IMG/VR virus record: IMGVR_UViG_3300033997_000077 | Span: 32,001-96,000 of that record | Source of the DNA: a virus | Length of the DNA stretch: 64,000 nt | Direction: 5' to 3' (one strand) | Part shown: positions 1,566 to 44,742 of the stretch, in pieces | Layout of the letters: each line of letters begins with the position of its first letter | Position numbering within the stretch: the first letter of the stretch is position 1 | Program-made: the position numbers and the translations under genes | The notes under the pieces: generated by a model | Database searches by the model: none | What the model saw: the letters and a program-made list of their open reading frames with translations, nothing else | Told to the model about the DNA's origin: nothing

Positions 1566-3875
1566 ATGCAACTGTCGATTAGCTCTATTGCCTCGACTTC
1601 TGCGCAACAAGATTTCGAGTGGTACATCTACAAGGGCAGCACCTTCACTGTCACTGGTGGTACTGCCCGAGCGCAAGTCAAAGAAGGGACGCGGGTTGGC
1701 ATCCGCCCAGTTGCGCGCTCCAAGGATTACTACATCGTAACCGAGGACGCGCCGAAGAAGCTGTTCAAGATTACCAAGCAACGCGCCACCAAGATTGCAG
1801 GCACTGGCAAACGCATCAAGCGTGTTATCCTGCAAGGTGATCAGCCCACTGCGAAAACCAAAGAGATCCTCGACGACGCTGCAACTCAGAAGTTTGACGC
1901 TGACCGCTTCAAGCCGCTGGGCACCGTTCGCAACGAAGCGTTCGGGCGTGACGGCACAGAGGCGTTCGGTGTGGACACCACCAACTACCAGTGGCGCGTT
2001 GTGCGTGACCCCGAGTACCTGATCCAAACCAACAAGCGGCCTATCAAGCTGCGCCGTGGCGACAAGATCGGTATGCGCTTTGGTCGTCCGTCACAGGGCG
2101 GTAAGATCGTTGACCTCAACGGTATGTATGAGACGGTAACCACCGCCGAGTACGACCGCATTGCATCCGACCTTCCGGTAATGCCGAAAGGGCGCTGGCC
2201 GCAGACCGTTGTTACTCCCGAGATGATCAAAGAGTACCAACTCAACAAAGAGCGTCAGCGTGTTCGCGAACGTAACGAGCGCGAGAAGGAAGAGCGTGCC
2301 CAACAGGCTGCTGTCCGCAACGCAGAGCGCGAAGCCAAGCAGCAGAAGGAAGAGGAAGAACGTCAACGTCGCGCGCTGGAAGCCAAAGAGCACGGCGAGA
2401 TCGTCAAGCAGATCGACGAAGCGGCCAAGGCCGAAACCGCTAAGGCCGAGCAGCTGAAGGAAGAGCGCCGCGCCAAAGCCGGACTGCAAGACGAAGATCT
2501 CCGCAACGCCAAAGCCAGTAAGATGCAGCCGTTGGAGCACGCACTGGAAGAGGAAGACGTCGATGACGACGAGGACTTCGGTGAAGATCTGGAAGGTGAT
2601 GTCACTCGCCAGTCCGACGACAAGAAGGCCGAGCGCGTCAAAGAGAACGACGTTGAGAAAGCCAAGCTCGACGCACGCAAGCGCGCTGAAGACATCAGCC
2701 TCCGTATGGCCGAAGCACTCAAGGCCGTGATCGAAGCTGCTGGCGATGACAAGGAAGCTGAAGCAGAAGCTCGCGCCGAGTACAAGGCAGACGCCAAGAC
2801 TCTGAAAGCCGCCGACACCACCGACGAGGACAAGGATGCCATCGTTGCTAAGTGGGAAGCAAAAGCCAACGGCGGCGAAGAGCAGGAAGAGGAAGAGCAG
2901 GAAGAAGACCCTGCCGCCGAGGAAGACCCTGCCGCCGAGGAAGACCCTGCTGCTGAGGAAGAGGAACAGGAAGAAGAGGACGCCGATCCTGCCGCCGAGG
3001 AAGAGGAACAGGAAGAAGACCCTGCTGCCACCGACGAATCTCCGGACGATGAAGAGTTCGAAGAAGAGGATGACGGATCGGAAGAAGGCGACGAAGACTT
3101 CGAAGAGGACGACGCCGACGCCGCTGCTGGTGATGAATCTCCGGACGATGAAGAGTTCGAAGAGGAAGAAGAGGATCCGGCTGCTGGTGATGAATCTCCG
3201 GACGATGAAGAGTTCGAAGAGGAAGAGCAGGACGACGAAGACTTCGAACCTACTGCTGACGACGACGCCGATCTCGATGACATGGTAGAGCCCGAGATTG
3301 ACGAAGACTCCGCAGGGATCGCCGACACATTGCGCGACAATCCAGACGCGCAAGACTTCGATGACGATGACGCGGTTTCCGATCTGGCGGACGTAGACGA
3401 GGAAGACATCGGCAAAGAGCCCGAGGAAGAGAAGACCCCTCCGAAGGACGCGCCGAAGAAACCGAAGGCTAAGGAAGAAGCGCCGCCTGAAGAGTCGGAA
3501 GATGACCCGCTCGAATTCGAAGACGAAGAGGATCCCGAAGCTGAAGCAGAAGTGCCGAAGCCTGCTGGCATCAAGGATACGCAGACCGCTGAAGAAGGCG
3601 ACCTGCTGACGTTCCATGATGACACCAAGCTCAAGCGCCGCTTCCTGTTGGTATCCGCCGAGCCTATGGAGCAGAACGACCGCATCATTGTCTACAAGCT
3701 GTGGGACTTTGATAGCAAGCCGGAAACCTACCGCACTGTGCGCGTAGCTACTGACCGTGGGCAGAGCATCCTGAAGTACGCTGACAAGGTTGGTCAGGTT
3801 ACTCCGAAGGAATTCAACGAAGCGCAGGACGCCGTTGATAACGCGGAGCATGACAAATCTGCAATCAAGAGTTGA
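1566..3875 (+). CDS. Acidic repeat-rich protein with N-terminal SxS leader; candidate internal head protein
   Basis: 769 aa; MQLSISSIASTSA leader, two small beta domains, a coiled coil, then a very long D/E tract. Confidence 0.6.
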   Translation: MQLSISSIASTSAQQDFEWYIYKGSTFTVTGGTARAQVKEGTRVGIRPVARSKDYYIVTEDAPKKLFKITKQRATKIAGTGKRIKRVILQGDQPTAKTKEILDDAATQKFDADRFKPLGTVRNEAFGRDGTEAFGVDTTNYQWRVVRDPEYLIQTNKRPIKLRRGDKIGMRFGRPSQGGKIVDLNGMYETVTTAEYDRIASDLPVMPKGRWPQTVVTPEMIKEYQLNKERQRVRERNEREKEERAQQAAVRNAEREAKQQKEEEERQRRALEAKEHGEIVKQIDEAAKAETAKAEQLKEERRAKAGLQDEDLRNAKASKMQPLEHALEEEDVDDDEDFGEDLEGDVTRQSDDKKAERVKENDVEKAKLDARKRAEDISLRMAEALKAVIEAAGDDKEAEAEARAEYKADAKTLKAADTTDEDKDAIVAKWEAKANGGEEQEEEEQEEDPAAEEDPAAEEDPAAEEEEQEEEDADPAAEEEEQEEDPAATDESPDDEEFEEEDDGSEEGDEDFEEDDADAAAGDESPDDEEFEEEEEDPAAGDESPDDEEFEEEEQDDEDFEPTADDDADLDDMVEPEIDEDSAGIADTLRDNPDAQDFDDDDAVSDLADVDEEDIGKEPEEEKTPPKDAPKKPKAKEEAPPEESEDDPLEFEDEEDPEAEAEVPKPAGIKDTQTAEEGDLLTFHDDTKLKRRFLLVSAEPMEQNDRIIVYKLWDFDSKPETYRTVRVATDRGQSILKYADKVGQVTPKEFNEAQDAVDNAEHDKSAIKS
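2877..3250 (+). repeat. Coding tandem repeats (18-nt EEDPAA x3; ~57-nt AAGDESPDDEEFEEEE x2-3)
   Basis: GAGGAAGACCCTGCCGCC units at ~2901-2954; GAATCTCCGGACGATGAAGAGTTCGAAGA occurs three times between ~3036 and 3220. Confidence 0.85.
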
Positions 3876-9067: not shown

Positions 9068-9069
9068 CA

Positions 9070-14045: not shown

Positions 14046-16340
14046 ATGTCTAAGCTCTACAAAGGCATAGTCGTGGCAGCTAACAGCAAGGCGGGAGTTG
14101 TAGCAGCGTTTTCCGACGTTGCTACTGGGAAGAATGCGCGTTTCATGGCATCGGAATCCGGTGCCGTGTTCGCAACTAACGGCATTGCCTATGACCCGTG
14201 CGGTTACGGTACTGTACGTGATTTTGATGGGGTGGAGGATATGGAATTCGCCTCTGCTAGTGCGGAAGCGGAAGCTAACCTGACTGTGTGTCTGGACGGC
14301 TGCCAAAACTTCATCCTGTCTGAATCACAGTTGCAACGTTGCCCTTCCTGCTCCGCAGCCCTCACCGCAAGCGAGGAAGATATTCACGACCTCGTTTTCG
14401 GCTCTGAGTCTGACGCCCTGCTGCAAGGTAGCGACCCTCTGTTCTGCGGAACTGAAGAGCAAGCCGCTGCTTTTGCCCGTGCACTGCGCACAGGCATCGT
14501 GCCATCGTTGTCGGGGGAACTCGCAACGTTGAACTATGACCCGTACAGCGGTCAAGAGTCGGTACGAAGCTGCTCCAACGTTGCTGAATTCAGCGGCGTG
14601 TTTCACAAATTCAAGTGCGCTGCTGGTTGCAGCCACCCCGTAACGTTGTCCACTTCGGCGGACATTGTTTTCTGCGCTCACTGTAACGCTCCCCTTGAGG
14701 AACCCGAGAACATGATCAAGAAAATTGGAAGAATTGATCAGCGTTTGCACGTCTTCGCTCCGTCAGTGTCCGGTGCCCTTAACGGGCTGCGTGATCTGCT
14801 GATCAACGGCGCGGCTGGCGCAAACCACTTCGATCACAAGAACCCCGACGAGAACTTCATCTCCAACTCCGCCTGTGCGTTCAACCCGTACACTGGTAAC
14901 AACGTTGCCAGCCGCGTAGTTGATTCTCTGTCCGGTACTGGTGCTGAAATCGCGCACGACGCGCTGAACATCCACCTGTTCAAGTGCCACGATGGTTGCG
15001 GTTTCATGGCGTGCAGCTCTGCTGATGCCAACTTCTGCTCCGAGTGTGACGCTCCGCTGGTAGAGCCGAGCGAAGAAGATCTGGCTGACCTGCCTGCTGC
15101 CGACACCGTTGGCGACGACTCTTCCCTCGAAGATCTGGAATCCGATCTGGCCGAGCTGGACGCTGACGAAGAAGACCTGCTGTCTGCTTCCGGCGAGGAA
15201 GAAGAGTTCGAAGACGAGGAAGAAGAAGACCTCGAATTCGACGACGGCGACGAAGGTGACTTCGACGAATCCAGCCTCTCCGGTGACGACTACGACGACG
15301 AAGATGAAGGCGACGATATGCCTGACTTCGACGACGAAGACGACGAAGAGGAGGACGAAGAGGACGAAGAGTCCGACTTCGAAGCCGAAGGCGACTTCTC
15401 TCTGGAATCCACTTCCGGCGACGAAGGTGGCGAAGATGGCGGTGAAGATACCGACACTATGCTGACCGACGACGAGCTGGCCGAGCTGGATTTTGAAGGC
15501 GAAGACGATGACATGGAATCCGAGAGTTCGGTAATTTCTATCAGCGCGGCGGAAGCCTTGGTAGCTGATGCGGAATTCAACCTCGACTCCTTGTCCTGTG
15601 TGTTCGACGGTAAGAGCCGTTACCATGCGATCTACGACAACCTGCCGCTGGGTTCCCTGAACCTGACTGCTCTGTCTGCCGCATTGGGTGACGAAGACAA
15701 GGCCAAAGTTCTGTTCCGCAACGGTACTCTGCCTTCAATCCTCAGCGCCTCCGCACGCGAGAACGGTCTGGAGCAGGCTCTGACCGACTTGGGCTTTACT
15801 CCGGTTGAGTTCAACGTTAGCGTCAGCAACGTTCTGCAACAACGTGCAAGCAAGTCCGCTGACGAGCGTGCCGACCGTCTGCAAAACGAAATCAACACCA
15901 TCGTTGCAGATACCACTGAGCGCTACCAAGCCAGCGTCAGCACCGCGATGATCGGTCTGACTCGCGGCTTCTGGAAGCAGGATGACAACGCTGTTGCCTC
16001 CGCTCTGGTGAACAAGATGGTTGCAAGCGGCATGAGCCTGAGCAGTGCCCGTGAGATGGTAACCTCGGCGTTCGCCGAGCAGGGTGCCGAACTGATGGCA
16101 ACCGTATTCTCCCGCGCGCAGTCTCTGAGTGCGATGTCTGTCGAAGGCTACAACGAAGTAAGCCGTGCCATCGAAGACATCAACGTTGCCTCTGTTTCTT
16201 CCGGTGCTGTAGAAATCGGCAAAGTTGTGCGCAAGCCAGCTGACGCCACCAACACCGAAGTCAAGATTGCCTCCAACTCTTCTGACGCTCTCGCATGGGA
16301 ACAGAAGATGGCGGCCCTCGGTCTGAATAACCGTCGCTGA
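14046..16340 (+). CDS. Prohead scaffold/core protein
   Basis: Sits between the protease and capsid genes. Three Cys-rich repeats, a long acidic tract, a helical C-terminus and about 25 SxS tripeptides. Confidence 0.65.
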   Translation: MSKLYKGIVVAANSKAGVVAAFSDVATGKNARFMASESGAVFATNGIAYDPCGYGTVRDFDGVEDMEFASASAEAEANLTVCLDGCQNFILSESQLQRCPSCSAALTASEEDIHDLVFGSESDALLQGSDPLFCGTEEQAAAFARALRTGIVPSLSGELATLNYDPYSGQESVRSCSNVAEFSGVFHKFKCAAGCSHPVTLSTSADIVFCAHCNAPLEEPENMIKKIGRIDQRLHVFAPSVSGALNGLRDLLINGAAGANHFDHKNPDENFISNSACAFNPYTGNNVASRVVDSLSGTGAEIAHDALNIHLFKCHDGCGFMACSSADANFCSECDAPLVEPSEEDLADLPAADTVGDDSSLEDLESDLAELDADEEDLLSASGEEEEFEDEEEEDLEFDDGDEGDFDESSLSGDDYDDEDEGDDMPDFDDEDDEEEDEEDEESDFEAEGDFSLESTSGDEGGEDGGEDTDTMLTDDELAELDFEGEDDDMESESSVISISAAEALVADAEFNLDSLSCVFDGKSRYHAIYDNLPLGSLNLTALSAALGDEDKAKVLFRNGTLPSILSASARENGLEQALTDLGFTPVEFNVSVSNVLQQRASKSADERADRLQNEINTIVADTTERYQASVSTAMIGLTRGFWKQDDNAVASALVNKMVASGMSLSSAREMVTSAFAEQGAELMATVFSRAQSLSAMSVEGYNEVSRAIEDINVASVSSGAVEIGKVVRKPADATNTEVKIASNSSDALAWEQKMAALGLNNRR

Positions 16341-18738: not shown

Positions 18739-18769
18739 GAGCCAGCCTAGTGCTGGCTCTTCTTGTTTC
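18739..18769 (+). terminator. Intrinsic terminator ending head operon
   Basis: GAGCCAGC-CTAGT-GCTGGCTC then TTCTTGTTTC. Confidence 0.8.
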
Positions 18770-22981: not shown

Positions 22982-23647
22982 ATGCTCTTAAATTTGAGCC
23001 TATCCGCCGCCAAGCCGCAGTACACTGAATTCGACTGGTTCAAGTTTACTGGGGTGCGTGGTGTATATCTCGAAAACAAGGAATACGAAGTCCAAATCGA
23101 CGCGGGCGAACGCTTCGGTGTTTTCATCGCGCAGCGTGGCGTTATCTACGTTGTGCACGAAGACCTGCCGACTGAGCTGTTCAAGTGCGATGCGAAAACC
23201 GCACGCTCTCTAATGAGTCGAGCAACGTACTACAAGGGACGCGTTAAGGGCAAAGCTGTAAACAACAGCAGACTTGTCAAAGGCGCGAACGTTCCACGTG
23301 ACCCGACTGCGCAGCCGCCAGCAGACCCAGCACCGGAAACCAAAACCAAAGCTGTGGGCAACGCCAAAGACATCTTGACCGCAATCCGCAAGCAATCGTT
23401 CGCCAAGCCGCGCAGTATCACCTACATGCGCAGTGCCGATATGGGCGAGGGCAAAGTGTTCTACTACGACGCGACTTCTTCCTACGTTGAATCCAAGTTG
23501 AAGGCCGCACAGTGGGAGAAGCACGCGGAGAAGATGCTGCTTGCCGCAATGGCGGGCACCAGTCACGAAGTCGGGGCAGTCGTGCAGCAACCAACATCAA
23601 AGACGCAGCCCGAGCGGGCGGTGTTGATGGTTAAGGTGGACACATGA
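22982..23647 (+). CDS. Protein with SLS leader and domain paralogous to the N-terminus of 1566..3875
   Basis: MLLNLSLSAA; FDWFKFTG...GERFGV...YVVHEDLP.ELFK. Confidence 0.65.
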   Translation: MLLNLSLSAAKPQYTEFDWFKFTGVRGVYLENKEYEVQIDAGERFGVFIAQRGVIYVVHEDLPTELFKCDAKTARSLMSRATYYKGRVKGKAVNNSRLVKGANVPRDPTAQPPADPAPETKTKAVGNAKDILTAIRKQSFAKPRSITYMRSADMGEGKVFYYDATSSYVESKLKAAQWEKHAEKMLLAAMAGTSHEVGAVVQQPTSKTQPERAVLMVKVDT

Positions 23648-31754: not shown

Positions 31755-32540
31755 ATGAAACAACTTTTGTGTGGTAAGATTTATATGCCCGTGGCTCTGC
31801 TGCACCGCGAGCGCGGTTTGGTAGTTGAGATATTCGCCATCGACTATTCCAGCGAGCGGGTTTCGGCATCCGACGCCGAGGTAACTCTCCGCCGTTACCT
31901 TCGCGACCGTGTGTTTATGTCGGCAGATGACACGTCGCTGTACGGGCCCGACGTTGAGTACGTGGACAACTACTACGAAGTCACTGGGGAAGGTTGGTCG
32001 TTCAGCATTCACGCCGACCGCACGCACATCGTTCCCCTGCTGCCGAACACTACGCCGCCCAAGTGTTTCCGCTGTGCGTTCTCCGATGACCTGCAACGTC
32101 GCATGATCTGTGGCGACGACTCGCACATCACAATCATGGCAACCAATATTGTCCGCAATCCGTCGCAGGATCCGTTCGGTCGCTTGGGTCTGCATCGCGT
32201 ACAGACCGAGCCGCTGCAAGCAATCACTTTCGGCGAAGACAGTGTGTCCTGCTTCTCTGCGTTCCGCATGGGATACAGCGACCAGCCAGTCGGCCACACG
32301 CTGCGCAAACCAACGCTGTTTATCCATGACAGTACGGGCGAGGCGCTGATAAACGTGAAGCTGGCAGGCTACCAGTTCGACAAGTTGGTCGTGGGCCCGC
32401 ATCCGCTGCGTATGATGATGTTTGGCGACTACGAATTCCAGCGCGCGGCCCACGCTTTTGGGGAGCCGAGCCACGAATTCACCATGTTCACCGACTGCAA
32501 GCACTACTGCCAACTGATTTCCGATTCTCCCGCACGCTAA
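31755..32540 (+). CDS. Hypothetical protein
   Basis: GAGG RBS, 261 aa, co-oriented in the operon. Confidence 0.6.
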   Translation: MKQLLCGKIYMPVALLHRERGLVVEIFAIDYSSERVSASDAEVTLRRYLRDRVFMSADDTSLYGPDVEYVDNYYEVTGEGWSFSIHADRTHIVPLLPNTTPPKCFRCAFSDDLQRRMICGDDSHITIMATNIVRNPSQDPFGRLGLHRVQTEPLQAITFGEDSVSCFSAFRMGYSDQPVGHTLRKPTLFIHDSTGEALINVKLAGYQFDKLVVGPHPLRMMMFGDYEFQRAAHAFGEPSHEFTMFTDCKHYCQLISDSPAR

Positions 32541-32543
32541 TTT
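32538..32543 (+). promoter_or_regulatory. TAATTT candidate late promoter
   Basis: GCTAATTTAGC overlaps the upstream stop, just before the GGAGG RBS of the SxS-leader gene cluster. Confidence 0.5.
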
Positions 32544-32560
32544 AGCGTAGGAGGAACACC

Positions 32561-32953
32561 ATGAACATTGAACTCAACATGTGCGTTGCTAACGCTTCGC
32601 TGTCCGCAGACCCAGTTGTTACGTTCTTAGAGCGTATGCGCAAGGCTGCGTACTCTACTGCCCCCAATCCGATTCGCGCAGCGCTGAAGAAAGTGAACCC
32701 CGACCACGTGGAAGATCTCAACTTCATTGTGCTGGGCGCGCCGTCGCTCACTACCAAAGACCCCATTGGGTTTGCGGTGGAAGACCCAGTGGACAATACT
32801 GTGGTCACGTCGTACCTCATTGATCGTGTTGCGCATGGTTCCCCTCTCGGGCGCGTGACTTCCGTGCGTGCTGACGACGCTAAGCTGGCAAACGTGCCAC
32901 TCAGTTATCAACACAGCGTTGTCCTAATGCGCATGCCGATGGACGCCCTGTAA
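32561..32953 (+). CDS. Small protein with SLS leader
   Basis: MNIELNMCVANASLSA; strong RBS. Confidence 0.65.
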   Translation: MNIELNMCVANASLSADPVVTFLERMRKAAYSTAPNPIRAALKKVNPDHVEDLNFIVLGAPSLTTKDPIGFAVEDPVDNTVVTSYLIDRVAHGSPLGRVTSVRADDAKLANVPLSYQHSVVLMRMPMDAL

Positions 32954-32963
32954 GGAGACACCA

Positions 32964-33518
32964 ATGAACATCAATCTTGGACTCAACATGGTTTCGGAAT
33001 CTACCCGACGCCGTGGCCGCCAGAATGACCCTGACCGCACGACCCCCGCTGGCTACGCTGCTGTGTATCCAACTCCGGAGACCGTGCGGTTTGTCATGTC
33101 TGAGTTGGAGAAGATTGGCCTGAAGACCGACTTCGATCCCAAAGACTTGCACGTTACGATGATGTACGACGTCGAGAACCCCGTGCTGTTCCATCCGGCA
33201 GCCCCGATTCAGATCGAAGCGACCGTGAATAGCGGCGCACTGTTCGGGCCGGAAGAGAACACGTTGGTTCTGAAGCTGGATAGCCAAGGTCTGATTGCTC
33301 GTCACAAGTACCTGCGTCAGATGGGCTACCGTCACAGCTACCCTGAGTATGAGCCGCACATGACAATCAAAGTTCCTGCCGATCAGCTGGACTTGGATTT
33401 GCTCAATCAGGGTTTGGCCGCTGGCGCGTTCAGTGGTGTGCGCCTCGTCTTCGGTGGCGAGACTTGGGAACCGATCCGCGAGGATGCTTATGCCAAGTAC
33501 GAGGACAAGGACGAATAA
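32964..33518 (+). CDS. 2H phosphoesterase, Acb1 (T4 gp57B)-like anti-CBASS candidate, with SES leader
   Basis: Two HxT motifs (LHVTMMY, PHMTI) and LVLKLDS..L..RH.Y....G..H.Y..Y.PH, matching the T4 Acb1 pattern as recalled. Confidence 0.8.
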   Translation: MNINLGLNMVSESTRRRGRQNDPDRTTPAGYAAVYPTPETVRFVMSELEKIGLKTDFDPKDLHVTMMYDVENPVLFHPAAPIQIEATVNSGALFGPEENTLVLKLDSQGLIARHKYLRQMGYRHSYPEYEPHMTIKVPADQLDLDLLNQGLAAGAFSGVRLVFGGETWEPIREDAYAKYEDKDE

Positions 33519-33525
33519 GGGCGAC

Positions 33526-34032
33526 ATGACTCCAAGTCAGCGGGCGTTTGGAAACAAGCTGCCCGCATCGTTCGTCTCTATCAGTCGAAATCAAGTTGCC
33601 CCGCTATTGCGACAGGCACTATCTCCATACTTCACGAAGCTCATGTATAGCCTGCACTTTGAGGTGGGGGTCGAGAGGGGCGGGCATTTACGTGCTGACG
33701 TCGTATGTGTGAAGATGGATCGCTCTGTCACGATAGTTGAGGTGAAAAGTGGATGGCAGGATTTTGCGGCAGACCATAAATGGCAGCGCTATTTACCGTT
33801 CTGCAACCAGTTCTACTTTGCAGTGAGCGACGCACTCTGGGACACTCACGCCGACCGCTTGAAAGAAGCGTTGGCTGGGTCGGGTGCTGGCATCATCGTG
33901 TGTAGAACTGGTGGCCCTGTGCGCAAAGTCCTGCCTGCGGCTAAAAGGAAAATGGCACCTGCTCGACGCATTTGGCTATTCACAAAGCTCGCGTGGATTT
34001 CTGGGCTGTCTCGGGCACGGAGAGTTAACTAA
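33526..34032 (+). CDS. MmcB-like PD-(D/E)XK nuclease
   Basis: EV......RADV....IVEVKS...DF..D.KW..YLPFC..FYFAV. Confidence 0.8.
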   Translation: MTPSQRAFGNKLPASFVSISRNQVAPLLRQALSPYFTKLMYSLHFEVGVERGGHLRADVVCVKMDRSVTIVEVKSGWQDFAADHKWQRYLPFCNQFYFAVSDALWDTHADRLKEALAGSGAGIIVCRTGGPVRKVLPAAKRKMAPARRIWLFTKLAWISGLSRARRVN

Positions 34033-34739
34033 TGAACATTGCATTAGGATTGAATCAGGTTAAGTCGGAAAGCAGCGTGGAAGGCGAGCGCGCCTTTGCC
34101 GACATCTTCGGTGACATCTTCGGTCAGATGTTCACGGACAGTATGCGCAAGTACAAGAAGGCCGACACTGAGTGCATGCTCGGCCCGCTGGAATCTGCAT
34201 CCAACGCACAGCAAGCGTCGCGCAGCAGCCAGCACACCAAGTTCGGCCCCATCACGATCACTACTCGCCTCGAAGGCGCTGACATGTTCTCCATCGTGTG
34301 GAGCAACCGGATGAATAACTCGTCTATCGGGATCCACAAGTTCTCCAAAGGGCGCTACGTTGTGGAACTCGGTCTGGCGAGCGGTGCACGTGTTGAAGCC
34401 CTGAACTTCAAGGCCATTGAGCACGCCACGGCGTTCGCTCTGCTCAACACTGACGTGACTCGGGTACAAGATGATCACGCACTGGCCGCGCGCAAGCACT
34501 TCCTGCAATTCCTCGTCGCGCGAGAGAAGCGGGCACAAGGCGCAGTGAAGTTCACGAAGACCGCGTGGCAAGTTAGCCGACTGCGCGGGCAGGATGTGAA
34601 GTTCAGCGAAGGCACCATCGACCACATTGGCCGCTTGATGTTCCTGCTCCCCAGCGAGAAAGCACTGATCACAACCTCCGATGGTAGCGGCAAAGTCGTT
34701 AAGCACACCGTACCGTTCGACAATATTTGGATCCAGTAG
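34032..34739 (+). CDS. Protein with SES leader
   Basis: MNIALGLNQVKSESS; GGAG RBS. Confidence 0.65.
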   Translation: MNIALGLNQVKSESSVEGERAFADIFGDIFGQMFTDSMRKYKKADTECMLGPLESASNAQQASRSSQHTKFGPITITTRLEGADMFSIVWSNRMNNSSIGIHKFSKGRYVVELGLASGARVEALNFKAIEHATAFALLNTDVTRVQDDHALAARKHFLQFLVAREKRAQGAVKFTKTAWQVSRLRGQDVKFSEGTIDHIGRLMFLLPSEKALITTSDGSGKVVKHTVPFDNIWIQ

Positions 34740-34748
34740 GGAGACCTA

Positions 34749-36881
34749 ATGCGAAAGCCTAAGTACAGGATTCTCCTTGGGGACAACCGCAAGACGCTTC
34801 CGACGATTCCGGATAAATCCATCTCCTGTTGTGTAACGAGCCCGCCCTATTATGGGCTGCGCGATTACGGCGGCATGGAAGAGCAGATCGGTTTGGAAGC
34901 GACGCCGGAAGAATACGTCGCGGAGCTGGTGAAAGTGTTCGAAGAAGTGAAGCGTGTTCTGCGGGATGACGGTACGCTGTGGTTGAACATTGGGGACACC
35001 CATTACAACTATCGTCCAACATCTGGCGACGACACGCGTCCGCATTCATTCGGCGGCGCTCGCACTGACGCAATGAAGCGGGGGCTGCCCAAGGACAACT
35101 CAAAGACGCACCGTGGCCGGAAGCTGACGACCGTTAAGCAGAAGGATCTGATCGGCATTCCTTGGATGCTGGCCTTTGCGTTGCGTGCTGCTGGTTGGTA
35201 TCTGCGGCAGGACATCATTTGGAGCAAGCCGAACCCGATGCCGGAAAGCGTCGGGGATCGTTGCACCAAAGCGCACGAATATATTTTCCTGCTCACTAAG
35301 AAGCCCCGCTATTACTTCGATAAGGAAGCCGCGAAAGAAGCCGCCGTAACTGGTGGGCTGCGCAAGCGGCGCAGTGTATGGCACGTCCCCACAGTCCCAT
35401 ACAAGGGAGCGCACTTTGCAACGTTCCCTCCGGAACTTATCGAGCCGTGTATTCGAATCGGCGCGCCGAAAGGCTCACGCGTATTAGATCCGTTCGGCGG
35501 ATCCGGCACTACGGCTGGGGTGGCGCTCGCTTTAGGTTGCGATGCGACACTCTGCGAATTGGATCCAAACTCCGCAAAACTCGTCAAAGACCGAGTGAAG
35601 TCAATCGGTCGGGCATACAAACTGAAACTCAATGAGGAACAAGACATGGAAATCAAACTGTCTGTATCGGCATTCAAGCCGAAAGTTCAAACAGGTGACC
35701 CGAAGCGCGATCTGGCGACGTCCCCGTCGGGGCGTCAAAGTGTGATGTCAGCCACGGAAATCACGAACATCGCACAGAGCATAGTAGACAAGATGCGCAA
35801 GCGCAACCTTCCCATCAGGTCGGAACACTCCCTGCGCAAGGCTGCTACGGAGGCGGTGAACAGTTGGGTAAACCGCTCCACTGCGTCGAAGCTCACCAAG
35901 GAAGTTAAGCAGAAGGCGGCAACCAAACTGGTCAACCGTGTGGTCGCCCTGTTCAACAAAAGCGAGCCGAAGGGAGTCTCTGCACCTAACGGCACCGATG
36001 CCAAGGCCAAGAAATTCTCCAAGGCCGAGATCGAAAAGATTGCAGGGCGTCTCGTCCACTACGTGAAGTTCTCCGGCGCGGTGGACAGCAAGAACAAGGA
36101 TAAATCCATCGACAACATTGTGAAAGGTTGGGCAGACATGCACAGCGTGCAGTATCCGAACCAATCACGCATGCTCAACAAAGACGCGGTTAAGAAGCAG
36201 CTGGTCGAGCTAGTCAACAAGAAGGCAGGCGGCTCCAAGAAAGCTCCGGCGTCCGCACCATCTGACAAGGTTGTGCCGAATACCGTGGCCGCCACCAAGG
36301 AAGAGAGACTGAAAGCTCAGATTCTGGCTGGCACCAAACTCCGCAACCAGTTCCAAGGCATGCTGGCAAAAGCCCCGTCCATGACTGCCAAGTCAATCGA
36401 GAACATCCGCAAGCATTGCGTTGCATACAACAAGGTGATCACCTCTGTTCAACGCGGCAACGAAGCGCTGGCCGAGACCACCAAGATCGAAGGGCTGCGC
36501 GGCATCGAATCCGTGAAGAACTACGTCAACAACGTTCTGGGCCTGACCTACGGCTACGTTGAAATCGCCAAGCAGTTGGGTGTTGCTCAGACTGCGCTGA
36601 AGGACAAGATCAATGCAGGCATCACCGTGGAGACTTCCAACGTTGAGCTGAAGCGCACCGCCAAGGCCAATGCGCAGCGTGCTCTGGGTTCCGTAGCCAA
36701 AGCACTCAGCCGCCGCAACTGCCAGCTGCCGACTTCCTTCCAGCGTGAAGTTGAGAAGGTGTTCGTGGACGCTGCGATGTCCGGTGACATCAAGAAGGCC
36801 AAGGAGCTGCTGCGTGATCGCATCGACATCTTTGTTGCCGACGTGTTCCGCAACAAGACCAAACTGTACTCAGCCAAGTAA
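34749..36881 (+). CDS. Beta-class amino (m4C/m6A) DNA methyltransferase fused in frame to a 411-aa basic protein
   Basis: TSPPY (motif IV) precedes VLDPFGGSGTT (motif I); IIW.KP and HFATFP present. No stop after the MTase domain. Confidence 0.88.
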   Translation: MRKPKYRILLGDNRKTLPTIPDKSISCCVTSPPYYGLRDYGGMEEQIGLEATPEEYVAELVKVFEEVKRVLRDDGTLWLNIGDTHYNYRPTSGDDTRPHSFGGARTDAMKRGLPKDNSKTHRGRKLTTVKQKDLIGIPWMLAFALRAAGWYLRQDIIWSKPNPMPESVGDRCTKAHEYIFLLTKKPRYYFDKEAAKEAAVTGGLRKRRSVWHVPTVPYKGAHFATFPPELIEPCIRIGAPKGSRVLDPFGGSGTTAGVALALGCDATLCELDPNSAKLVKDRVKSIGRAYKLKLNEEQDMEIKLSVSAFKPKVQTGDPKRDLATSPSGRQSVMSATEITNIAQSIVDKMRKRNLPIRSEHSLRKAATEAVNSWVNRSTASKLTKEVKQKAATKLVNRVVALFNKSEPKGVSAPNGTDAKAKKFSKAEIEKIAGRLVHYVKFSGAVDSKNKDKSIDNIVKGWADMHSVQYPNQSRMLNKDAVKKQLVELVNKKAGGSKKAPASAPSDKVVPNTVAATKEERLKAQILAGTKLRNQFQGMLAKAPSMTAKSIENIRKHCVAYNKVITSVQRGNEALAETTKIEGLRGIESVKNYVNNVLGLTYGYVEIAKQLGVAQTALKDKINAGITVETSNVELKRTAKANAQRALGSVAKALSRRNCQLPTSFQREVEKVFVDAAMSGDIKKAKELLRDRIDIFVADVFRNKTKLYSAK
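35646..36881 (+). CDS. Nested in-frame gene: Lys-rich protein with SVS leader
   Basis: GAGGA RBS at 35634-35638, then ATG 35646 giving MEIKLSVSAF, the same leader type as neighbouring genes. Confidence 0.6.
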   Translation: MEIKLSVSAFKPKVQTGDPKRDLATSPSGRQSVMSATEITNIAQSIVDKMRKRNLPIRSEHSLRKAATEAVNSWVNRSTASKLTKEVKQKAATKLVNRVVALFNKSEPKGVSAPNGTDAKAKKFSKAEIEKIAGRLVHYVKFSGAVDSKNKDKSIDNIVKGWADMHSVQYPNQSRMLNKDAVKKQLVELVNKKAGGSKKAPASAPSDKVVPNTVAATKEERLKAQILAGTKLRNQFQGMLAKAPSMTAKSIENIRKHCVAYNKVITSVQRGNEALAETTKIEGLRGIESVKNYVNNVLGLTYGYVEIAKQLGVAQTALKDKINAGITVETSNVELKRTAKANAQRALGSVAKALSRRNCQLPTSFQREVEKVFVDAAMSGDIKKAKELLRDRIDIFVADVFRNKTKLYSAK

Positions 36882-36890
36882 AGGTGAAGC

Positions 36891-37553
36891 ATGGATAGTT
36901 ACATCGTACTTGAAGGGCCGGATTTCGCTGGCAAGTCTTCTCTGATTGCTTTCATTGCGGAGCAACTTCAAGCGCGCGGTGTGGAAGTGGAGGTCGTCCG
37001 CGAGCCGGGCGGCACCCCTTTCGCTGAAGCGATGCGCGAGAGCGTGCTGTGCGGAGAGTACAACCCGAGCCAAGAAGCCGAACTGTTTGCCATGCTGGCA
37101 GCACGTGCCGATCTGTTCCACAAGCGGATTCTTCCGGCGTTGGAGCAAGGCAAAGTTGTACTGGGTGACCGTGGTTCTCCCAGCACTGACATCTACCAGT
37201 GTGGTAACGATGACGTACTGCGTGACATGTTCCTGCGCTACAAGAAGATAGCCGCACCGATCACTCCGCTGTACGTGTTCCTCGAACTCGACTACGAGAC
37301 CTACCTCGAACGCCGCAACGCGCGTGCTGCTGAAGGTCAGGCGCTCGACGCCATCGAGAAACGTTACACCGAGCGCTCAAAGTACGAAGCCCTGATGTCC
37401 AGTTACCGTCAGGCTGCTGCCCGTGAGCAGAACGTACTGATCGTCAACGTCGTTGGCAAGACGATTGAGCAGATCTACAATGAACTCTGGCCGTACCTGC
37501 GCTGTGAAGCGCAGTTGTCTGTAGGAGGCCCCCGTGAATGTGACCCAGCGTAA
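36891..37553 (+). CDS. tmk: Thymidylate kinase
   Basis: YIVLEGPDFAGKSS P-loop, REPGGT, ELF...AAR, VVLGDR. Confidence 0.93.
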   Translation: MDSYIVLEGPDFAGKSSLIAFIAEQLQARGVEVEVVREPGGTPFAEAMRESVLCGEYNPSQEAELFAMLAARADLFHKRILPALEQGKVVLGDRGSPSTDIYQCGNDDVLRDMFLRYKKIAAPITPLYVFLELDYETYLERRNARAAEGQALDAIEKRYTERSKYEALMSSYRQAAAREQNVLIVNVVGKTIEQIYNELWPYLRCEAQLSVGGPRECDPA

Positions 37554-39459
37554 TTTTGGCGTCCGTATGCAAAGCCTCAGTCAAGTGTTACCGATGACTT
37601 CGGAGTCCGCCGTGACTCCGATTCGTCTGAAGTACATGGGCAGTGCGCCCGTGGAACTCGACGGTAACGACGACTGGGATGCGTCGATGGACAAAGGCGA
37701 AGCCTACGAGCTTGTGCCTGCCGCAAACGCACGCGGCAAAGTCGCCATTGTGTTGAAGATTGAACGCAAACGTGAATTCTTCTACGTCAGCGACCGTGCG
37801 AAGATCATGCAGATTCTGGCGGGCACCAAGTTCCCCAAGAAGATGGATCTCGACAACCTGCTGTACGCAACAGGCAAGGGCGTGAACCGTGCGAACTTTG
37901 TTGAGGTCGGCACCATTGCTGAAGACATCAACGATATGTCTACGCACAAGTGGTTCCTCGCCGCTGGGATCAAGATGTATATGGACAAGAACAAGCGCCA
38001 TTACTTCTGTTTCGATCTCAAGAACCCGATGGAAACCTACCTGCCGAAGACCAAGGTAGCCCGCCTGAAAGCGTCGTTCAAGCCGCAGCCCGCTAAGACC
38101 ATCGTGCAGCAAATCGCGGACAAGGTTGAGGAAAAGGTTGCTGGCACGAAGACCGTGCACCAGTACGACGGCGGCCCCATCGATCCGAAGTACGTAGGCG
38201 ACCCGAACTTCAGCGTCCTGATCGGCGGCAACGTCTACAAGGGCACCGAACTCAGCATCGACAACAAGGGCAACGTGTACCATCCGGTTGCGTCCGATGA
38301 CCCCATCGAGAATGCGTTGCGTAACCACAAGCGTCCTGCCTACAAGAACATGACGACCGCGCAGATCGGTGCTGCGTTGCTGGCTATGCCGCGCGAGCAG
38401 CTGTATGTTGAAGCCGCACGTGCTGCCCACGCCGAAGACCTGCGCGCACTGCTGGCAGCTGGCCGTACACTCTCGCAGTGGAAAGACCTCGGCTACACCA
38501 GCAAGCAGGGAGCTGAAAAGCAACTTGCAGCAATCGAGAGCGCCAATGTACGCGAGGCTGTTCCGGTAACGAGCCCGACTGTTGGCCCACGCAACACCAC
38601 TATCCCACAGCCGAAGACCATTGCGGATTCCGATTACGGCTTCCTCGCTGTAACACCGCACGAACTTCACGCCAAAGATAGCTGGGTGGTGTACGCTCCG
38701 ACACGCGCGGCCCTTACTCGCCAACTCGACATCCTGCACTCTGCTGCTGGTGATTCGATGGCGAAGGCCGGAAAGGTCGAACTCTACAAGATCGTGCGTC
38801 AGTCGCCGCTTGTCCAGCAGATCGCCAAGCGCGCCGTCGCAATGTCTACTGCGGAAATCAAATCGAAGGCAACGTTCGTGCGCATGGTTTCCTACGTCGC
38901 GCCCATCGCCGGAGACGAGGTTCAGCATGAGCGTCCGTGGACTGACATCGACCCCGACGACATCAACGTCAGTTGGAGCGACTACGATCCTGCGGAAACC
39001 CGACTGGCGATCACCAAGCTGTTCAACGAGGGCTTCTTCAGTGCCACGTTGAAGCCGCGCCCGACTACCAAGGGTTTGGTGTTCGACATCGTTGGTGGCC
39101 GCGCTGGTCGTGATGAAGTCTACGGTGCAGTGCGCCGCGTGTACCAGTGGCTGCACAACATTGGAATCAACAACGTCAAGGTTGCCGCCAAGTGGGCACC
39201 GACCAAAGCGCTGATTGACTTCAAGTTCCCTGCACTGTCCGCCGACGAGAAAGAGAGTATCCGACTGCTGCGCGAGAAGCCGCCAGTTATCGGGGCACCG
39301 CTCTACACCATCGAGGCGCAGAAGCACCGCACGTTCCAGATCTACGCTGCCGACAACAACTCCGGTAAGGTGTTCATGTATCCTGTGCGGAATACTCAGC
39401 CGCTCACGAACGAGCCGACGCCTGTGCTGTACTGCAAAGTTCAACGCATTGCAGAATAA
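37534..39459 (+). CDS. 641-aa protein with SLS/SES leader; candidate internal head protein
   Basis: GTG after AGGAGG (alternative ATG 37567); MQSLSQVLPMTSESA. Confidence 0.6.
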   Translation: MNVTQRNFGVRMQSLSQVLPMTSESAVTPIRLKYMGSAPVELDGNDDWDASMDKGEAYELVPAANARGKVAIVLKIERKREFFYVSDRAKIMQILAGTKFPKKMDLDNLLYATGKGVNRANFVEVGTIAEDINDMSTHKWFLAAGIKMYMDKNKRHYFCFDLKNPMETYLPKTKVARLKASFKPQPAKTIVQQIADKVEEKVAGTKTVHQYDGGPIDPKYVGDPNFSVLIGGNVYKGTELSIDNKGNVYHPVASDDPIENALRNHKRPAYKNMTTAQIGAALLAMPREQLYVEAARAAHAEDLRALLAAGRTLSQWKDLGYTSKQGAEKQLAAIESANVREAVPVTSPTVGPRNTTIPQPKTIADSDYGFLAVTPHELHAKDSWVVYAPTRAALTRQLDILHSAAGDSMAKAGKVELYKIVRQSPLVQQIAKRAVAMSTAEIKSKATFVRMVSYVAPIAGDEVQHERPWTDIDPDDINVSWSDYDPAETRLAITKLFNEGFFSATLKPRPTTKGLVFDIVGGRAGRDEVYGAVRRVYQWLHNIGINNVKVAAKWAPTKALIDFKFPALSADEKESIRLLREKPPVIGAPLYTIEAQKHRTFQIYAADNNSGKVFMYPVRNTQPLTNEPTPVLYCKVQRIAE

Positions 39460-39499
39460 GAAAAGGGGAGACACCGCAAAGTGTCTCCCCTTTCTTTTT
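39458..39499. terminator. Bidirectional intrinsic terminator
   Basis: AAGAAAAGGGGAGACAC-CGCAAA-GTGTCTCCCCTTTCTTTT between convergent genes. Confidence 0.9.
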
Positions 39500-39989
39500 A
39501 CCCGATAGAGAACGCCTGCTTGCGGTTATTGCGGGGCACGTAGCTAACGTGTACCCAACCGCTGCGCGGGTCTCCGCTCTTGTGGAACTCAAGGATCAGC
39601 TGGTCGTAAACCAAGTTGGCCTTGATCCACTCGTACAGATCCTTGTTGCTTACTCCCCTCACTTCCAAATCAACGGCATTGCCGCGCGGGTGCTGCTTGC
39701 GGGCAAAATACTTCGCCCAGCTAACTTCGTTGACCTTCATGCCGTTCTGCGCACACCACTTCACATACGCATCCTTGCAGATAGCCTTCTCCAACGCTTC
39801 GCAGCGATACCACGAATTGATCTCAATGTTGGCGACGCCGTACTTGATAGCCAATGGCTCAAGAACGTTGACCGCAACGTTGATCGCTTCGTTCACCACG
39901 GCGGGCGGCGCACTGTTGTCAATCTTCAGGCGGTAAGCGGTATCGCTCTCCACCACATGACGCAGATTGAAATTGGCACTGATCTGCAT
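39498..39989 (-). CDS. Peptidase M15-family endolysin
   Basis: QISANF.L, INSWYRC, QH..G.AVD and WVHVSY Zn-ligand motifs; ATG 39989 with GGAGG RBS. Confidence 0.88.
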   Translation of the reverse strand: MQISANFNLRHVVESDTAYRLKIDNSAPPAVVNEAINVAVNVLEPLAIKYGVANIEINSWYRCEALEKAICKDAYVKWCAQNGMKVNEVSWAKYFARKQHPRGNAVDLEVRGVSNKDLYEWIKANLVYDQLILEFHKSGDPRSGWVHVSYVPRNNRKQAFSIG

Positions 39990-40008
39990 ACATACCTCCG
40001 ATGCAAAA

Positions 40009-40043: not shown

Positions 40044-40586
40044 ATGAAACACGAGTACATTGTTAGTGCAGCGTTGACAGCGTTCCAGATTTCGACCCAC
40101 AGTCACTGTGTACGTCGTCAAGCTGGCGCAATCATCATTGCACGTGACGGGACTGAAAACCGTCCCGAGGTGTTGGGCTGGGGCGCGAACGGTATGCCGT
40201 CCGGCCATGCAACCAACTGCTGCGAGATCCCAGCTGCTCCGGACTTCGTGCCGCAAGCTGGTGATCCTTACGGCCACTTGATGACAAGCCCTGAAGTCGT
40301 TCACGCGGAAATCAGAGCGCTACGTCAAGCGGGCGAAAGTGCGCGTGGCGCAATCATGGTATGCACTGACACCCCGTGCCCAGATTGCCTCAAGGCACTC
40401 AACGATGCAGGGATTGCCGAGTTCTACTACCTGTTCGACTATCGCCTGACCGCACACCTTCAGGACGCCACATTCAAAATTAGCCAGATAGACGTGGATG
40501 AAGTTCTGTGTCTGTCACAGGCATTGAGCAAGCGCATTGAACACCGCATCATCAACAACCTGAAACTCATGGAGCAAAGCAAATGA
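40044..40586 (+). CDS. dCMP deaminase
   Basis: S.C.RRQ.GAII, G.NG.P.G..NCCE, VHAE, PCPDC; start after GGAG. Confidence 0.92.
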   Translation: MKHEYIVSAALTAFQISTHSHCVRRQAGAIIIARDGTENRPEVLGWGANGMPSGHATNCCEIPAAPDFVPQAGDPYGHLMTSPEVVHAEIRALRQAGESARGAIMVCTDTPCPDCLKALNDAGIAEFYYLFDYRLTAHLQDATFKISQIDVDEVLCLSQALSKRIEHRIINNLKLMEQSK

Positions 40587-41899
40587 ACGGAACCTGCCCA
40601 AGCGTAGCCGACGACTTCGAAGACGCCGAAGAGTTTAACTCTTACTTCAACGTAGATCTCCAATACGTCGACCTGTTGGAGAAAATTCAACACGTCAACT
40701 ACGTGAAACCTGCACGCCAGCATACGCGGATGTCTATTCCGCACTCTGCTATGTGGTTCCCCGACGTCACGGTAAGCATGCCGCTGCCACGCGTTAAAAA
40801 GTTGTTCCTGCGTCAGATGCTGCGCGAGCTGCTTTGGTTCTGTAGCGGCGCAACCGACATTGCGTATTTGAAACGCCACAACGTCAACATCTGGGATGGC
40901 TGGGTGAAAGCAGGCACCGAAGTGTGGGCGGAAATCCCGTGGGCGGATCGCATTCGCGAGGTAGAGAAGCGTGGCCTACTCGAAGAGTTCCAGCGCTACA
41001 CCGCACAGTATCCGGATCAACTCGACCGTCACGCAATCTGGATGGACAACTACAGCATCCCGTCACGCAAACTTGTCGGCGGCCAGCTGGGCCCCGTGTA
41101 TGGCGCGCAGTGGCGCAGAATCGAAGATACTCAGATCATCTTCACTGGGGATCCTGACTCCAAAGAACGCTACGACGCACTGTTAGCCAAGGGATACGTG
41201 AAGCAAGGCATCTTCGAAGCTGGCGAAACCGGATACGACAACGTGGTAATGGTCGGCTACATTGACCAGCTGGGCGACGTGCTGGATCTGCTGGATCGTG
41301 ATCCCGGCTCTTCGCGCATGGTTGTCAACGCGTGGAACCCGCGTGACTTGCCGAAGATGCAACTGCCGCCCTGCCACATGACTTTCCAGCTTGTGGTCGG
41401 CGCTCCCCACTATCGTTGTCTCCACAACGTTGAGCACGTGCTGCACATGAACGCGTACCAGCGCAGCGTTGACACCTGTTTGGGCTTGCCGTTCAATCTG
41501 GCGTCGTACTCCACACTGCTCCACATCTTTGCAGCAGTATCCAAGATCAAGCTGGACGCTGGTGGTCTCATGTATAACATGGGCGACTGCCACATCTACA
41601 GCAACCAACTCGGTGAGCCGATGGACAAGCTGAAGGGCCAGATCGAAAACGAACTGGAACGTCTGGCCGAACAAGAGAACGTGTCGGATGCCATGATCGA
41701 CGCACCGAAGTTGAAGATCAACGTTCCGGAGTCGCTGACCACCAAGTGGGCAGGCTGCGACAAATACTACGGCACGCGCTATCGTTTCGACGAATTCATC
41801 GGCCACTGCATGGAGTTGTCGGACGAAGAGCTGTTCAAGGTGTTCGACTACACCTACGAGAACTACCAGCCCCACGTTCACTTCCCCGTCAGCATCTAA
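40583..41899 (+). CDS. thyA: Thymidylate synthase with large insertions
   Basis: ELLWF, NIWD.W, LGPVYG.QWR, SSR..V.AWNP, LPPCH, YQRS.D..LGLPFN, GD.HIY.N. Confidence 0.95.
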   Translation: MNGTCPSVADDFEDAEEFNSYFNVDLQYVDLLEKIQHVNYVKPARQHTRMSIPHSAMWFPDVTVSMPLPRVKKLFLRQMLRELLWFCSGATDIAYLKRHNVNIWDGWVKAGTEVWAEIPWADRIREVEKRGLLEEFQRYTAQYPDQLDRHAIWMDNYSIPSRKLVGGQLGPVYGAQWRRIEDTQIIFTGDPDSKERYDALLAKGYVKQGIFEAGETGYDNVVMVGYIDQLGDVLDLLDRDPGSSRMVVNAWNPRDLPKMQLPPCHMTFQLVVGAPHYRCLHNVEHVLHMNAYQRSVDTCLGLPFNLASYSTLLHIFAAVSKIKLDAGGLMYNMGDCHIYSNQLGEPMDKLKGQIENELERLAEQENVSDAMIDAPKLKINVPESLTTKWAGCDKYYGTRYRFDEFIGHCMELSDEELFKVFDYTYENYQPHVHFPVSI

Positions 41900-44468: not shown

Positions 44469-44742
44469 CAAAGCAGCATGGCACTTGGTGCTGAGTGAAC
44501 TCGGCGGCCCCAAGGTGGATCCCAACATTCTGAGCGAAGTAGAAATGATGGCGGTCGGTGACGGTCTCGGTATCCACCTCTTCGGGGTCAGTAAGCTGCC
44601 CGACCGTGACGAGATTGAACGCCGTCGCCAAATCCAGCGCGAGCAATGGGCCGCGTACCGAGCAGAACAAGAAAGGCTACGCCCGTTGCGTAGCGCGCTG
44701 CGTAGTCGTGAACTGCGCAAGAAGCAGAAACGTAAACGCTAG
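44461..44742 (+). CDS. Hypothetical basic protein
   Basis: ATG 44461 overlapping the previous stop. Confidence 0.5.
   Translation: MDSKAAWHLVLSELGGPKVDPNILSEVEMMAVGDGLGIHLFGVSKLPDRDEIERRRQIQREQWAAYRAEQERLRPLRSALRSRELRKKQKRKR

Follow-up and report, generated by a model that had tools for sequence, protein, structure and literature searches.

Several viruses have nested in-frame genes for capsid enzymes, such as C/Nu3 of bacteriophage lambda, I/Z of bacteriophage Mu and UL26/UL26.5 of the herpesviruses. The lambda-type pairs are ancient, conserved and essential, and their enzyme is a protease. In bacteriophage T4, N-terminal propeptides of 7-19 residues on Alt and on the internal proteins IPI-III load the core and are removed by gp21, as described in excerpts of PMC9026906. 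A further kind of system is represented by DarB of bacteriophage P1 and the polyvalent proteins, which excerpts of PMC5512222 describe as virion-delivered, as containing methylases, and as joining 2-15 effector domains. In this work we analyzed a locus that is partly like each of these systems, the open reading frame (ORF) 34749..36881 (+) in a stretch of viral DNA of 64,000 nucleotides (nt) that corresponds to positions 32,001 to 96,000 of the IMG/VR record IMGVR_UViG_3300033997_000077 and is called the window from here on. In this ORF a beta-class DNA methyltransferase (methylase) is joined in frame to a Lys-rich, predicted helical protein that has kept its own ribosome-binding site, start codon and N-terminal leader.

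The ORF begins with ATG and is translated into 710 amino acids (aa) without an internal stop; the source record comprises 129,992 bases (b) and its completeness is rated at 49%. A preliminary description of the window had noticed a complete methylase that reads without a stop into a Lys-rich domain and, at the junction, a GAGGA ribosome-binding site with ATG 35646, from which the frame opens MEIKLSVSA. Both observations hold: the methylase domain is covered nearly in full by PF01555, the downstream part (411 aa, 45.0 kDa, isoelectric point 10.15) contains 13.1% Lys, and the internal Shine-Dalgarno (SD) sequence and start were confirmed, with a spacing of 7 nt between them. The features of the locus are as follows.

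34032..34739 (+), upstream neighbour, 235 aa, with a variant of the leader, MNIALGLNQVKSES, at its start; its stop codon TAG (34737-34739) is the 5' edge of the insertion.
34740..34744 (+), SD sequence of the methylase, GGAGA, 4 nt ahead of ATG 34749 (read from the sequence).
34749..35645 (+), methylase part, aa 1-299, a beta-class N6/N4 DNA methyltransferase without a stop codon (PF01555, phrog_67).
34839..34850 (+), catalytic motif IV, SPPY, aa 31-34 (S31, P32, P33 and Y34 invariant in 9/9 aligned sequences).
35493..35513 (+), motif I, FGGSGTT, aa 249-255, which binds S-adenosylmethionine (AdoMet) (invariant in 9/9 aligned sequences).
35604..35645 (+), tail and linker IGRAYKLKLNEEQD, aa 286-299, inside which the methylase homologues terminate.
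35634..35638 (+), SD sequence of the internal start, GAGGA, 7 nt ahead of ATG 35646, ancestral (the equivalent place in L001, the corresponding locus of the nearest genome compared, has AGGAACAAGAT-ATG).
35646..35669 (+), leader MEIKLSVS, which fits the consensus M-x-I/V-x-L-S-x-S (M1, L5, S6 and S8 invariant in 16/16 sequences).
35646..36881 (+), ancestral gene for the 411-aa Lys-rich helical protein, a presumptive capsid-loaded cargo (family alignment and structural model).
35673..35735 (+), conserved motif FKPKVQTGDPKRDLATSPSGR, predicted to be disordered, whose position varies among family members (alignment; predicted local distance difference test, pLDDT, ~32 over residues 1-32 of the short form).
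35751..35960 (+), three-helix module 1, aa 36-105 of the short form (AlphaFold model).
36021..36218 (+), three-helix module 2, aa 126-191 of the short form (AlphaFold model).
36258..36878 (+), conserved C-terminal helical domain, aa 205-411 of the short form, which defines the family (alignment and AlphaFold model).
36891..37553 (+), downstream neighbour, thymidylate kinase (syntenic in L001 and in phages JA33 and PaBG).

The final codons of the linker (aa 286-299) are the ribosome-binding region of the downstream gene, translated. The other two frames both hit a TGA within the last ten codons of the linker, and there are seven single-base changes in codons 290-299 each of which would create a stop in the fused frame. 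A programmed frameshift was considered and dropped: the other frames do end at these TGA codons, but there is neither evidence of a slippery site nor need for one. No credible terminator lies between the methylase and cargo halves, and a scan of positions 32000-40000 for sigma-70 promoters gave 2 sites against 2.7 expected, none of them near the junction. The insert does not stand out in base composition, with a GC fraction of 0.560 where the genome has 0.562; the codon adaptation, measured with an index of our own referenced to 14 large genes of the window, is 0.58 for the methylase, 0.76 for the cargo gene and 0.72 for the neighbours.

By its capsid protein, which is 37-47% identical to those of the group, the phage is a jumbo myovirus of the PaBG/Lu11/Dickeya JA/Erwinia Alexandra group, and its gene order agrees with that of Dickeya phage JA33. 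The nearest genome compared, G001 (229,746 b, rated 100% complete), contains in L001 the genes of a LigT/Acb1-like protein, an MmcB-like protein, a 239-aa protein that starts MNIALGLN, a 407-aa protein that starts MEIQLSVSA, and thymidylate kinase, in this order. The gene of the 239-aa protein (2964..3683), which is the orthologue of the upstream neighbour in the window, directly precedes the stand-alone 407-aa gene, and no methylase homologue was found anywhere in G001. At the DNA level L001 can be aligned with the window as far as the stop codon of the upstream gene; the homology is then lost and is found again from AGGAACAAGA(C/T)ATG onwards. In JA33 and PaBG the MmcB-like gene is directly followed by that of the deoxythymidine monophosphate (dTMP) kinase. 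Given that G001 shows the same order with the 407-aa gene alone and no methylase, this comparison indicates that the methylase was inserted recently and arrived, or stayed, without a stop codon; the points where the homology breaks and resumes delimit an insert made of an SD sequence and a methylase ORF lacking a stop, and mark the downstream ribosome-binding site and start as ancestral. The proposal that the internal SD sequence and ATG act as a start of their own finds support in the 407-aa gene of L001, which stands alone behind the equivalent site. As to the suggestion that a stop codon has recently been lost, a missing stop fits best, but either a later loss or an insertion that never carried a stop would account for it.

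The resemblance to nested genes of the lambda C/Nu3 type, and to gp21/gp21s of T4 (excerpts of PMC9026906), lies in a single frame with two starts, the inner one with a ribosome-binding site of its own. As in those pairs, the long form would be an enzyme plus the shared C-terminal part and the short form an abundant head component; the difference is that here the enzyme is not a protease of long standing but a methylase recently acquired in one small clade.

The methylase half matches PF01555 (N6_N4_Mtase) over aa 25-279 (E 3.3e-42; 145.4 bits against a cut-off of 26.7; profile positions 1-219 of 221) and the DNA methyltransferase family phrog_67 (E 4.9e-71), and by these matches it is a complete, ordinary member of PF01555. 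The beta class is defined by a circular permutation that places motif IV, (D/S)PP(Y/F), before motif I, FxGxG, and this is the order found, with SPPY N-terminal to FGGSGTT. SPPY is typical of N4-cytosine enzymes; the names given to the homologues in databases conflict, adenine in some and cytosine in others. The best relative of solved structure is 2zie, a putative modification methylase of Thermus (E 6.6e-18). The closest stand-alone homologues (281-297 aa, 60-66% identity in the alignment) terminate, in eight cases of eight, 4-14 residues past a conserved RV.S[IV] motif; their ends map within a few codons of ATG 35646, and a stop is thus expected at the very place where the ORF has none. The same contrast is seen with the orphan PF01555 methyltransferases of phages (cyanophage and Shewanella phage homologues, 53-59% identity), which share the family, the catalytic length and the invariant residues but end after 281-297 residues, whereas the methylase of the window has no stop. 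A search of 5.8 billion proteins revealed no stand-alone version among the best 120 of 7,999 candidates, the best methylase of 164-524 aa being 67% identical. JA33 has a homologous methylase, JA33_236 (L013 2131-3354), which is 56-66% identical over the matched stretches and carries a C-terminal extension of 120 residues that looks by eye like a degenerate second AdoMet-binding region; the idea that it is a parallel fusion was dropped, as the extension shows no relation to the cargo family and lacks a leader.

The fused arrangement is known from four distinct sequences, those of the window, P0002, P0003 and P0140, on contigs of 129,992, 4,160, 4,179 and 126,834 b. In all four the junction reads ...AYKLKL(N/T)EEQD-MEIKLSVSA, and the Met-Glu-Ile of the internal start is kept in 4/4. 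When three of them were compared, the methylase parts differed at 3-5 of 299 positions and the cargo parts at 27-60 of 411, in blocks: the differences between the window and P0002 are confined to positions 184-396 of the cargo, and those between the window and P0003 to positions 32-196 plus 296. Some of these blocks reappear in the unfused alleles P0004, P0005, P0141 and P0142, which implies that fused and unfused alleles coexist and recombine; a near-identical methylase beside a cargo that differs by blocks implies in turn that the fusion has survived recombination. The fused sequences are 4 of the 21 known sequences of the family and all are ~95% identical to one another. The fusion thus recurs in P0002, P0003 and P0140, whereas the arrangement is absent from G001, JA33 and PaBG. 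A stop near 35630-35650 in the relatives would have spoken against the fusion; instead, these either lack the methylase or have the same fusion. The concern raised at the outset that a sequencing error might be involved finds no support in four non-identical sequences that have a common junction on four contigs, and the sequences indicate that the fusion is a real circulating allele and not an assembly error.

The leader is conserved throughout the cargo family. An alignment of the short form of the window with 15 stand-alone members, in which two fused proteins obtained by the word-indexed search were left out, shows M1, L5, S6 and S8 invariant in 16/16 sequences (M-x-(I/V)-x-L-S-x-S); P0140, P0141 and P0142 likewise carry it, which brings the family to 19/19 when read from its own start. 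The leader codons differ between the window and L001, and the same peptide encoded by different codons points to a constraint on the peptide and not on the DNA. In genome G000, which contains the window, the motif [LIVMF]-S-x-S occurs within the first 12 start positions 17 times against 2.0 expected (129 ORFs, P 7e-11), and in G001 16 times against 3.8 (252 ORFs, P 3e-6). These counts rest on crude gene calls (greedy non-overlapping ORFs): five of the 17 hits in G000 look fortuitous (those at 18763, 54069 and 91614 of the window and one at 44558 that entered the count twice), two genuine bearers, at genome position 3796 and at 35646 (the internal copy), escaped the gene calls, and the convincing bearers in G000 number about 12. 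The full leader opens its reading frame in five of six matches in G000, the exception being the fusion described here, and in three of three in G001. The SxS leader noted in the preliminary description is, by its invariance in the family and its enrichment at the N-termini of two genomes, a recurrent N-terminal signal.

Among the other proteins of G000 that bear the leader are an Alt-like ADP-ribosyltransferase of the ART-PolyVal family (PF18760, E 1.7e-25), a second ART-PolyVal match that is weak (24.9 bits, under the cut-off of 31.2), a NUDIX protein (E 6.6e-17), and two KMPT-N proteins (PF20294) of 769 aa (window 1566-3875, +) and 221 aa (22982-23647, +). The 221-aa protein is encoded between two tail-tube paralogues, a position conserved in JA33, and its JA33 orthologue (JA33_121, 31-33% identity) opens MLFFVSVSA. 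Nine leader-bearing genes stand in a row ahead of the window (L014, G000:C1:3069-14774) and encode proteins that open MKIQLSMS, MQIQLSLSA, MKVELGLSES, MEIRLSLSA, MRIQLSLSD, MKILMSLSA, MQVQLSLSN, MLHISTSA and MINISTSA; the row includes one clear and one weak ART-PolyVal ADP-ribosyltransferase and the NUDIX protein, and the domains that are strung together in the polyvalent proteins of other phages are here separate, individually tagged proteins. A longer variant of the leader, MNI.L.LN...SES, is found in three neighbours of the fusion gene, one of which is a homologue of Acb1, the phosphodiesterase that counteracts the cyclic-oligonucleotide-based antiphage signalling system (CBASS) (window 32964-33518, +; PF23474, E 1.3e-16, 61 bits against a cut-off of 27). 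This homologue has ~30 extra N-terminal residues that open MNINLGLNMVSES, which is the leader variant, its L001 orthologue starts identically, and it may be packaged into the capsid and reach the new host together with the DNA. In PaBG (L005, L028, L029) several proteins start in a way that is related to the leader but distinct from it, M-x-[IL]-x-[IV]-[AN]-[ML]..AE, for example MQLLIAMASAE, MQIKVAMYSAE (LigT), MLIKINLLEAV (gp83), MAAIKINLAEA and MELAIASD (SprT-like); this suggests that the first half of the tag is common to the PaBG/Lu11 group and that the cut site differs.

By analogy, the leader most likely corresponds to the capsid-targeting sequence (CTS) of T4 and would direct loading into the head, where it would be cleaved. 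The two systems have in common a very short N-terminal peptide (8 residues here) that is shared by unrelated enzymatic and basic proteins, an ADP-ribosyltransferase included, and a maturation protease gene beside scaffold-like and capsid genes. They differ in that no sequence similarity exists between them, the motif being hydrophobic-S-x-S here and L/I-x-E in T4, and in that the tag of the fusion is internal, 299 residues from the N-terminus, whereas the cargo of T4 is C-terminal to its tag. A search of the open-access literature gave no report of this leader, nor of any methylase fused to a head-cargo protein.

With DarB and the polyvalent proteins the locus has in common that a methylase domain is joined to a protein presumably of the virion-delivered class described in excerpts of PMC5512222, and that neighbouring genes carry ART-PolyVal, NUDIX and KMPT-N domains; however, one enzymatic domain and an orphan helical protein stand here against the 2-15 effector domains given in that source, and the domains are otherwise separate proteins in this phage, each with a leader of its own. 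No SWI2/SNF2 ATPase or metallopeptidase domain was found in the 710 aa at E <= 0.1, and without a helicase or peptidase domain the fusion does not strictly qualify as a polyvalent protein or as one of the DarB type.

The 411-aa half, whose description as a head protein is presumptive, has no Pfam, PHROG or NCBIfam family, and no family match links it to IPI-III or Alt of T4, which bears on its membership and not on the mechanism. The word-indexed search gave a family of 17 proteins, and a HMMER pass over 1.84 billion cluster representatives gave five matches only, all close kin. Among 50,697 phage records neither megablast of 34000-38000 nor tblastn of the 411-aa part gave a match; scans of viral contigs and of metagenome contigs yielded one relative contig each, and it was the identical contig; the ESM Atlas gave no usable match. 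An AlphaFold model built from 16 sequences (mean pLDDT 72.7) is all-helical, with residues 1-32 of the short form disordered (pLDDT ~32) and a C-terminal helical domain whose block-mean pLDDT is mostly 84-94 from about residue 230. With this model Foldseek gave 0 matches at E <= 0.001 in PDB and BFVD, and the best hit of a wide structure search (VIA), 4yo5_A with Z 7.7 (root mean square deviation 3.5, 86 aligned residues), is within the noise of helical models. The N-terminal modules are shuffled, duplicated or lost among relatives, and their number and order vary; only the leader and the last ~210 residues are fixed across the family. A near-invariant motif of 20 residues, KPKV.TG.PKRDLATSPSGR, also changes position: it lies directly behind the leader in some members and 80-100 residues deeper in others, between shuffled modules (window 35673-35735; proteins P0008, P0010 and P0014), and it could serve for docking or be a second place of processing.

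A motif similar to the end of the leader, [LF]-S-x-[SA], stands just before the conserved [ST]GE.NA of the major capsid protein in the five members of the group that were examined:

Window: FSAS-SGELNA
JA33: LSES-TGEVNA
PaBG: LSSS-TGEINA
Alexandra: LSSS-TGEINA
Lu11: LSSA-TGEFNA

In RSL1 and Motura the conserved core of the capsid protein is preceded by VGA. A putative head maturation protease is encoded at 9040-9861, beside scaffold-like and capsid genes; it is assigned by phrog_18299 (E 1.2e-87) plus synteny. Between the protease and capsid genes, in the scaffold position, lies the gene for a 764-aa protein (window 14046-16340, +) that has recurring zinc-ribbon-like Cys-x2-Cys motifs, a very long stretch of Asp and Glu, and [LIVMF]-S-x-S at eight places; PHROGs labels it 'ATPase', and from this composition it looks like an acidic core or scaffold protein that would be cut at many sites.

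The best explanation, which we hold with moderate confidence, is an in-frame insertion accident that gives two products, a methylase acting in the cell and the short form of the cargo. An orphan beta-class methylase gene with its own SD sequence and no stop would have been inserted between two leader-bearing genes, directly behind the stop of the 235-aa gene and directly ahead of the ribosome-binding site of the 411-aa gene, and by chance in frame with this second gene. Initiation at ATG 34749 would give a methylase-linker-leader-cargo protein of 78.5 kDa, and initiation at the retained ancestral GAGGA/ATG 35646 a 45-kDa protein, the normal cargo. The leader would load the 45-kDa protein into the prohead, and the prohead protease would then clip the leader, as in T4. 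The methylase half of the long form would stay in the cytoplasm and mark replicating phage DNA against host restriction, the C-terminal passenger on the enzyme being tolerated.

Several points weigh against this explanation. The open junction has persisted in four haplotypes despite the seven changes that could restore a stop, so selection for the fusion could be at work, and the divergence of the haplotypes is too small to separate selection from neutrality. Elongating ribosomes could suppress the internal start. The capsid protein of PaBG loses ~20% of its mass on maturation (PMC7412058), which exceeds what a single cut at the capsid motif would remove and suggests a different or an additional cut. 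The protease at 9040-9861 belongs to no Pfam or NCBIfam family and PDB gives for it only zinc-finger chains (E >= 0.0098); the link from the leader to the prohead protease is indirect.

The alternative that survives best, although we judge it unlikely, is the one proposed in the preliminary description. The leader or the cargo domain would bring the long form into the prohead, where it would be cut once at LSVS/A; the trapped, folded methylase of 34.4 kDa would be ejected with the DNA and, by modifying the incoming or early DNA, protect it from restriction. This could work because the leader is the sole [LIVMFA]-S-x-S motif in the 710 aa, so that one cut would give fragments of 34.4 and 44.1 kDa, and it lies in the segment predicted to be disordered. 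The same leader stands on enzymes (ART-PolyVal, NUDIX, Acb1) that are seemingly loaded, and the junction has stayed open in the four haplotypes. There are precedents as well: methylases are among the domains of P1 DarB and the polyvalent proteins, which are delivered by the virion (excerpts of PMC5512222), and foreign enzymes fused to IPIII of T4 or to its CTS were packaged and delivered (excerpts of PMC9026906). However, in the same excerpts on T4 the cargo is C-terminal to the CTS, and here the methylase is N-terminal to the leader. The methylase has no leader of its own; apart from the fusion, each full leader found in the scans of G000 and G001 opens its frame; and the closest unfused haplotypes (P0004, P0005, P0141 and P0142) circulate beside the fused ones. 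Moreover, the producing cell would already supply methylated progeny DNA, and there would be little for an injected methylase to add. Stated as a mechanism, this would be a reverse loading of cargo, in which the upstream enzyme is dragged in by the cargo, freed at LSVS/A and ejected with the genome, and we consider it slightly less likely still.

It is rather improbable that the leader has another role, related to another protease, another destination or the efficiency of translation, and that the 411-aa protein is not a head protein, in which case nothing about virions could be read from the fusion; this possibility overlaps with the others. It draws on the 221-aa leader-bearing protein, which lies between two tail-tube paralogues, on the variation of the motif in the group (LSxS here, A/N-M/L..AE-like in PaBG), and on the scarcity of leader-like starts among the virion proteins of PaBG that are visible by Coomassie staining, where 1 of 14 has one. 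This one is gp83 (MLIKINLL), with a computed mass of 35,149 Da against 35,127 Da in Table 1 of PMC7412058, whose gene numbers differ from the RefSeq tags. On the other side, the peptide is conserved through different codons in the window and L001, the types of cargo (Alt-like ADP-ribosyltransferase, NUDIX, KMPT-N) match injected proteins named in excerpts of PMC5512222, and the similar motif precedes the core of the capsid protein in 5/5 members of the group.

We give little weight to a situation in which only the long protein is made, the internal start being silenced and the cargo either impaired or delivered as a fusion. The SD sequence of the methylase, GGAGA, is usable, and ribosomes that read through can occlude an internal SD sequence. 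Yet the core of the internal SD sequence and its ATG are unchanged with respect to the unfused L001, the Met-Glu-Ile is present in the four fused sequences, and the internal start is better spaced from its SD sequence (7 nt) than the methylase start is from its own (4 nt). The lambda C/Nu3 pair is another case of an in-frame internal start. Such starts are used in many phage genes, for example that of gp21s in T4 (excerpts of PMC9026906).

An artefact in which an indel error removed the stop is very improbable: a single miscalled base would be enough, given the TGA that both other frames have within the last 10 codons, but four non-identical sequences on four contigs have the junction in common, and no stand-alone version was found among the best 120 of the 7,999 candidates mentioned above.

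Farther downstream in the window, a 438-aa homologue of thymidylate synthase (40583-41899, +) is encoded beside a deoxycytidine monophosphate deaminase, a dihydrofolate reductase and the dTMP kinase. Its match to PF00303 spreads 224 profile positions over 331 residues, which implies large insertions, and the cluster may represent a pathway of base modification and not simply one that makes dTMP. The end of a 641-aa gene is marked by a strong hairpin that looks like a two-way terminator (39461-39494; 13-15 pairs, T runs on both strands).

The fusion looks more like a tolerated insertion accident than like a designed loading of a methylase into the head. If the insertion accident is the correct explanation, the locus is a clean, datable example of an accessory gene landing in an anti-defence and cargo cluster, and it shows a gene fusion being born and persisting in a recombining wild population. 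If, on the other hand, the long form is packaged, the fusion would represent a one-step route by which any enzyme becomes a virion-delivered effector with no need of a leader of its own; the methylase would be a virion-delivered anti-restriction factor, and the tags would work as internal linear motifs. This, if true, would bear on the origin of the polyvalent injected proteins and on the engineering of phage capsids as protein carriers. For the hydrophobic-S-x-S leader found in the PaBG/Lu11 group, the locus is in effect a test construct provided by nature.

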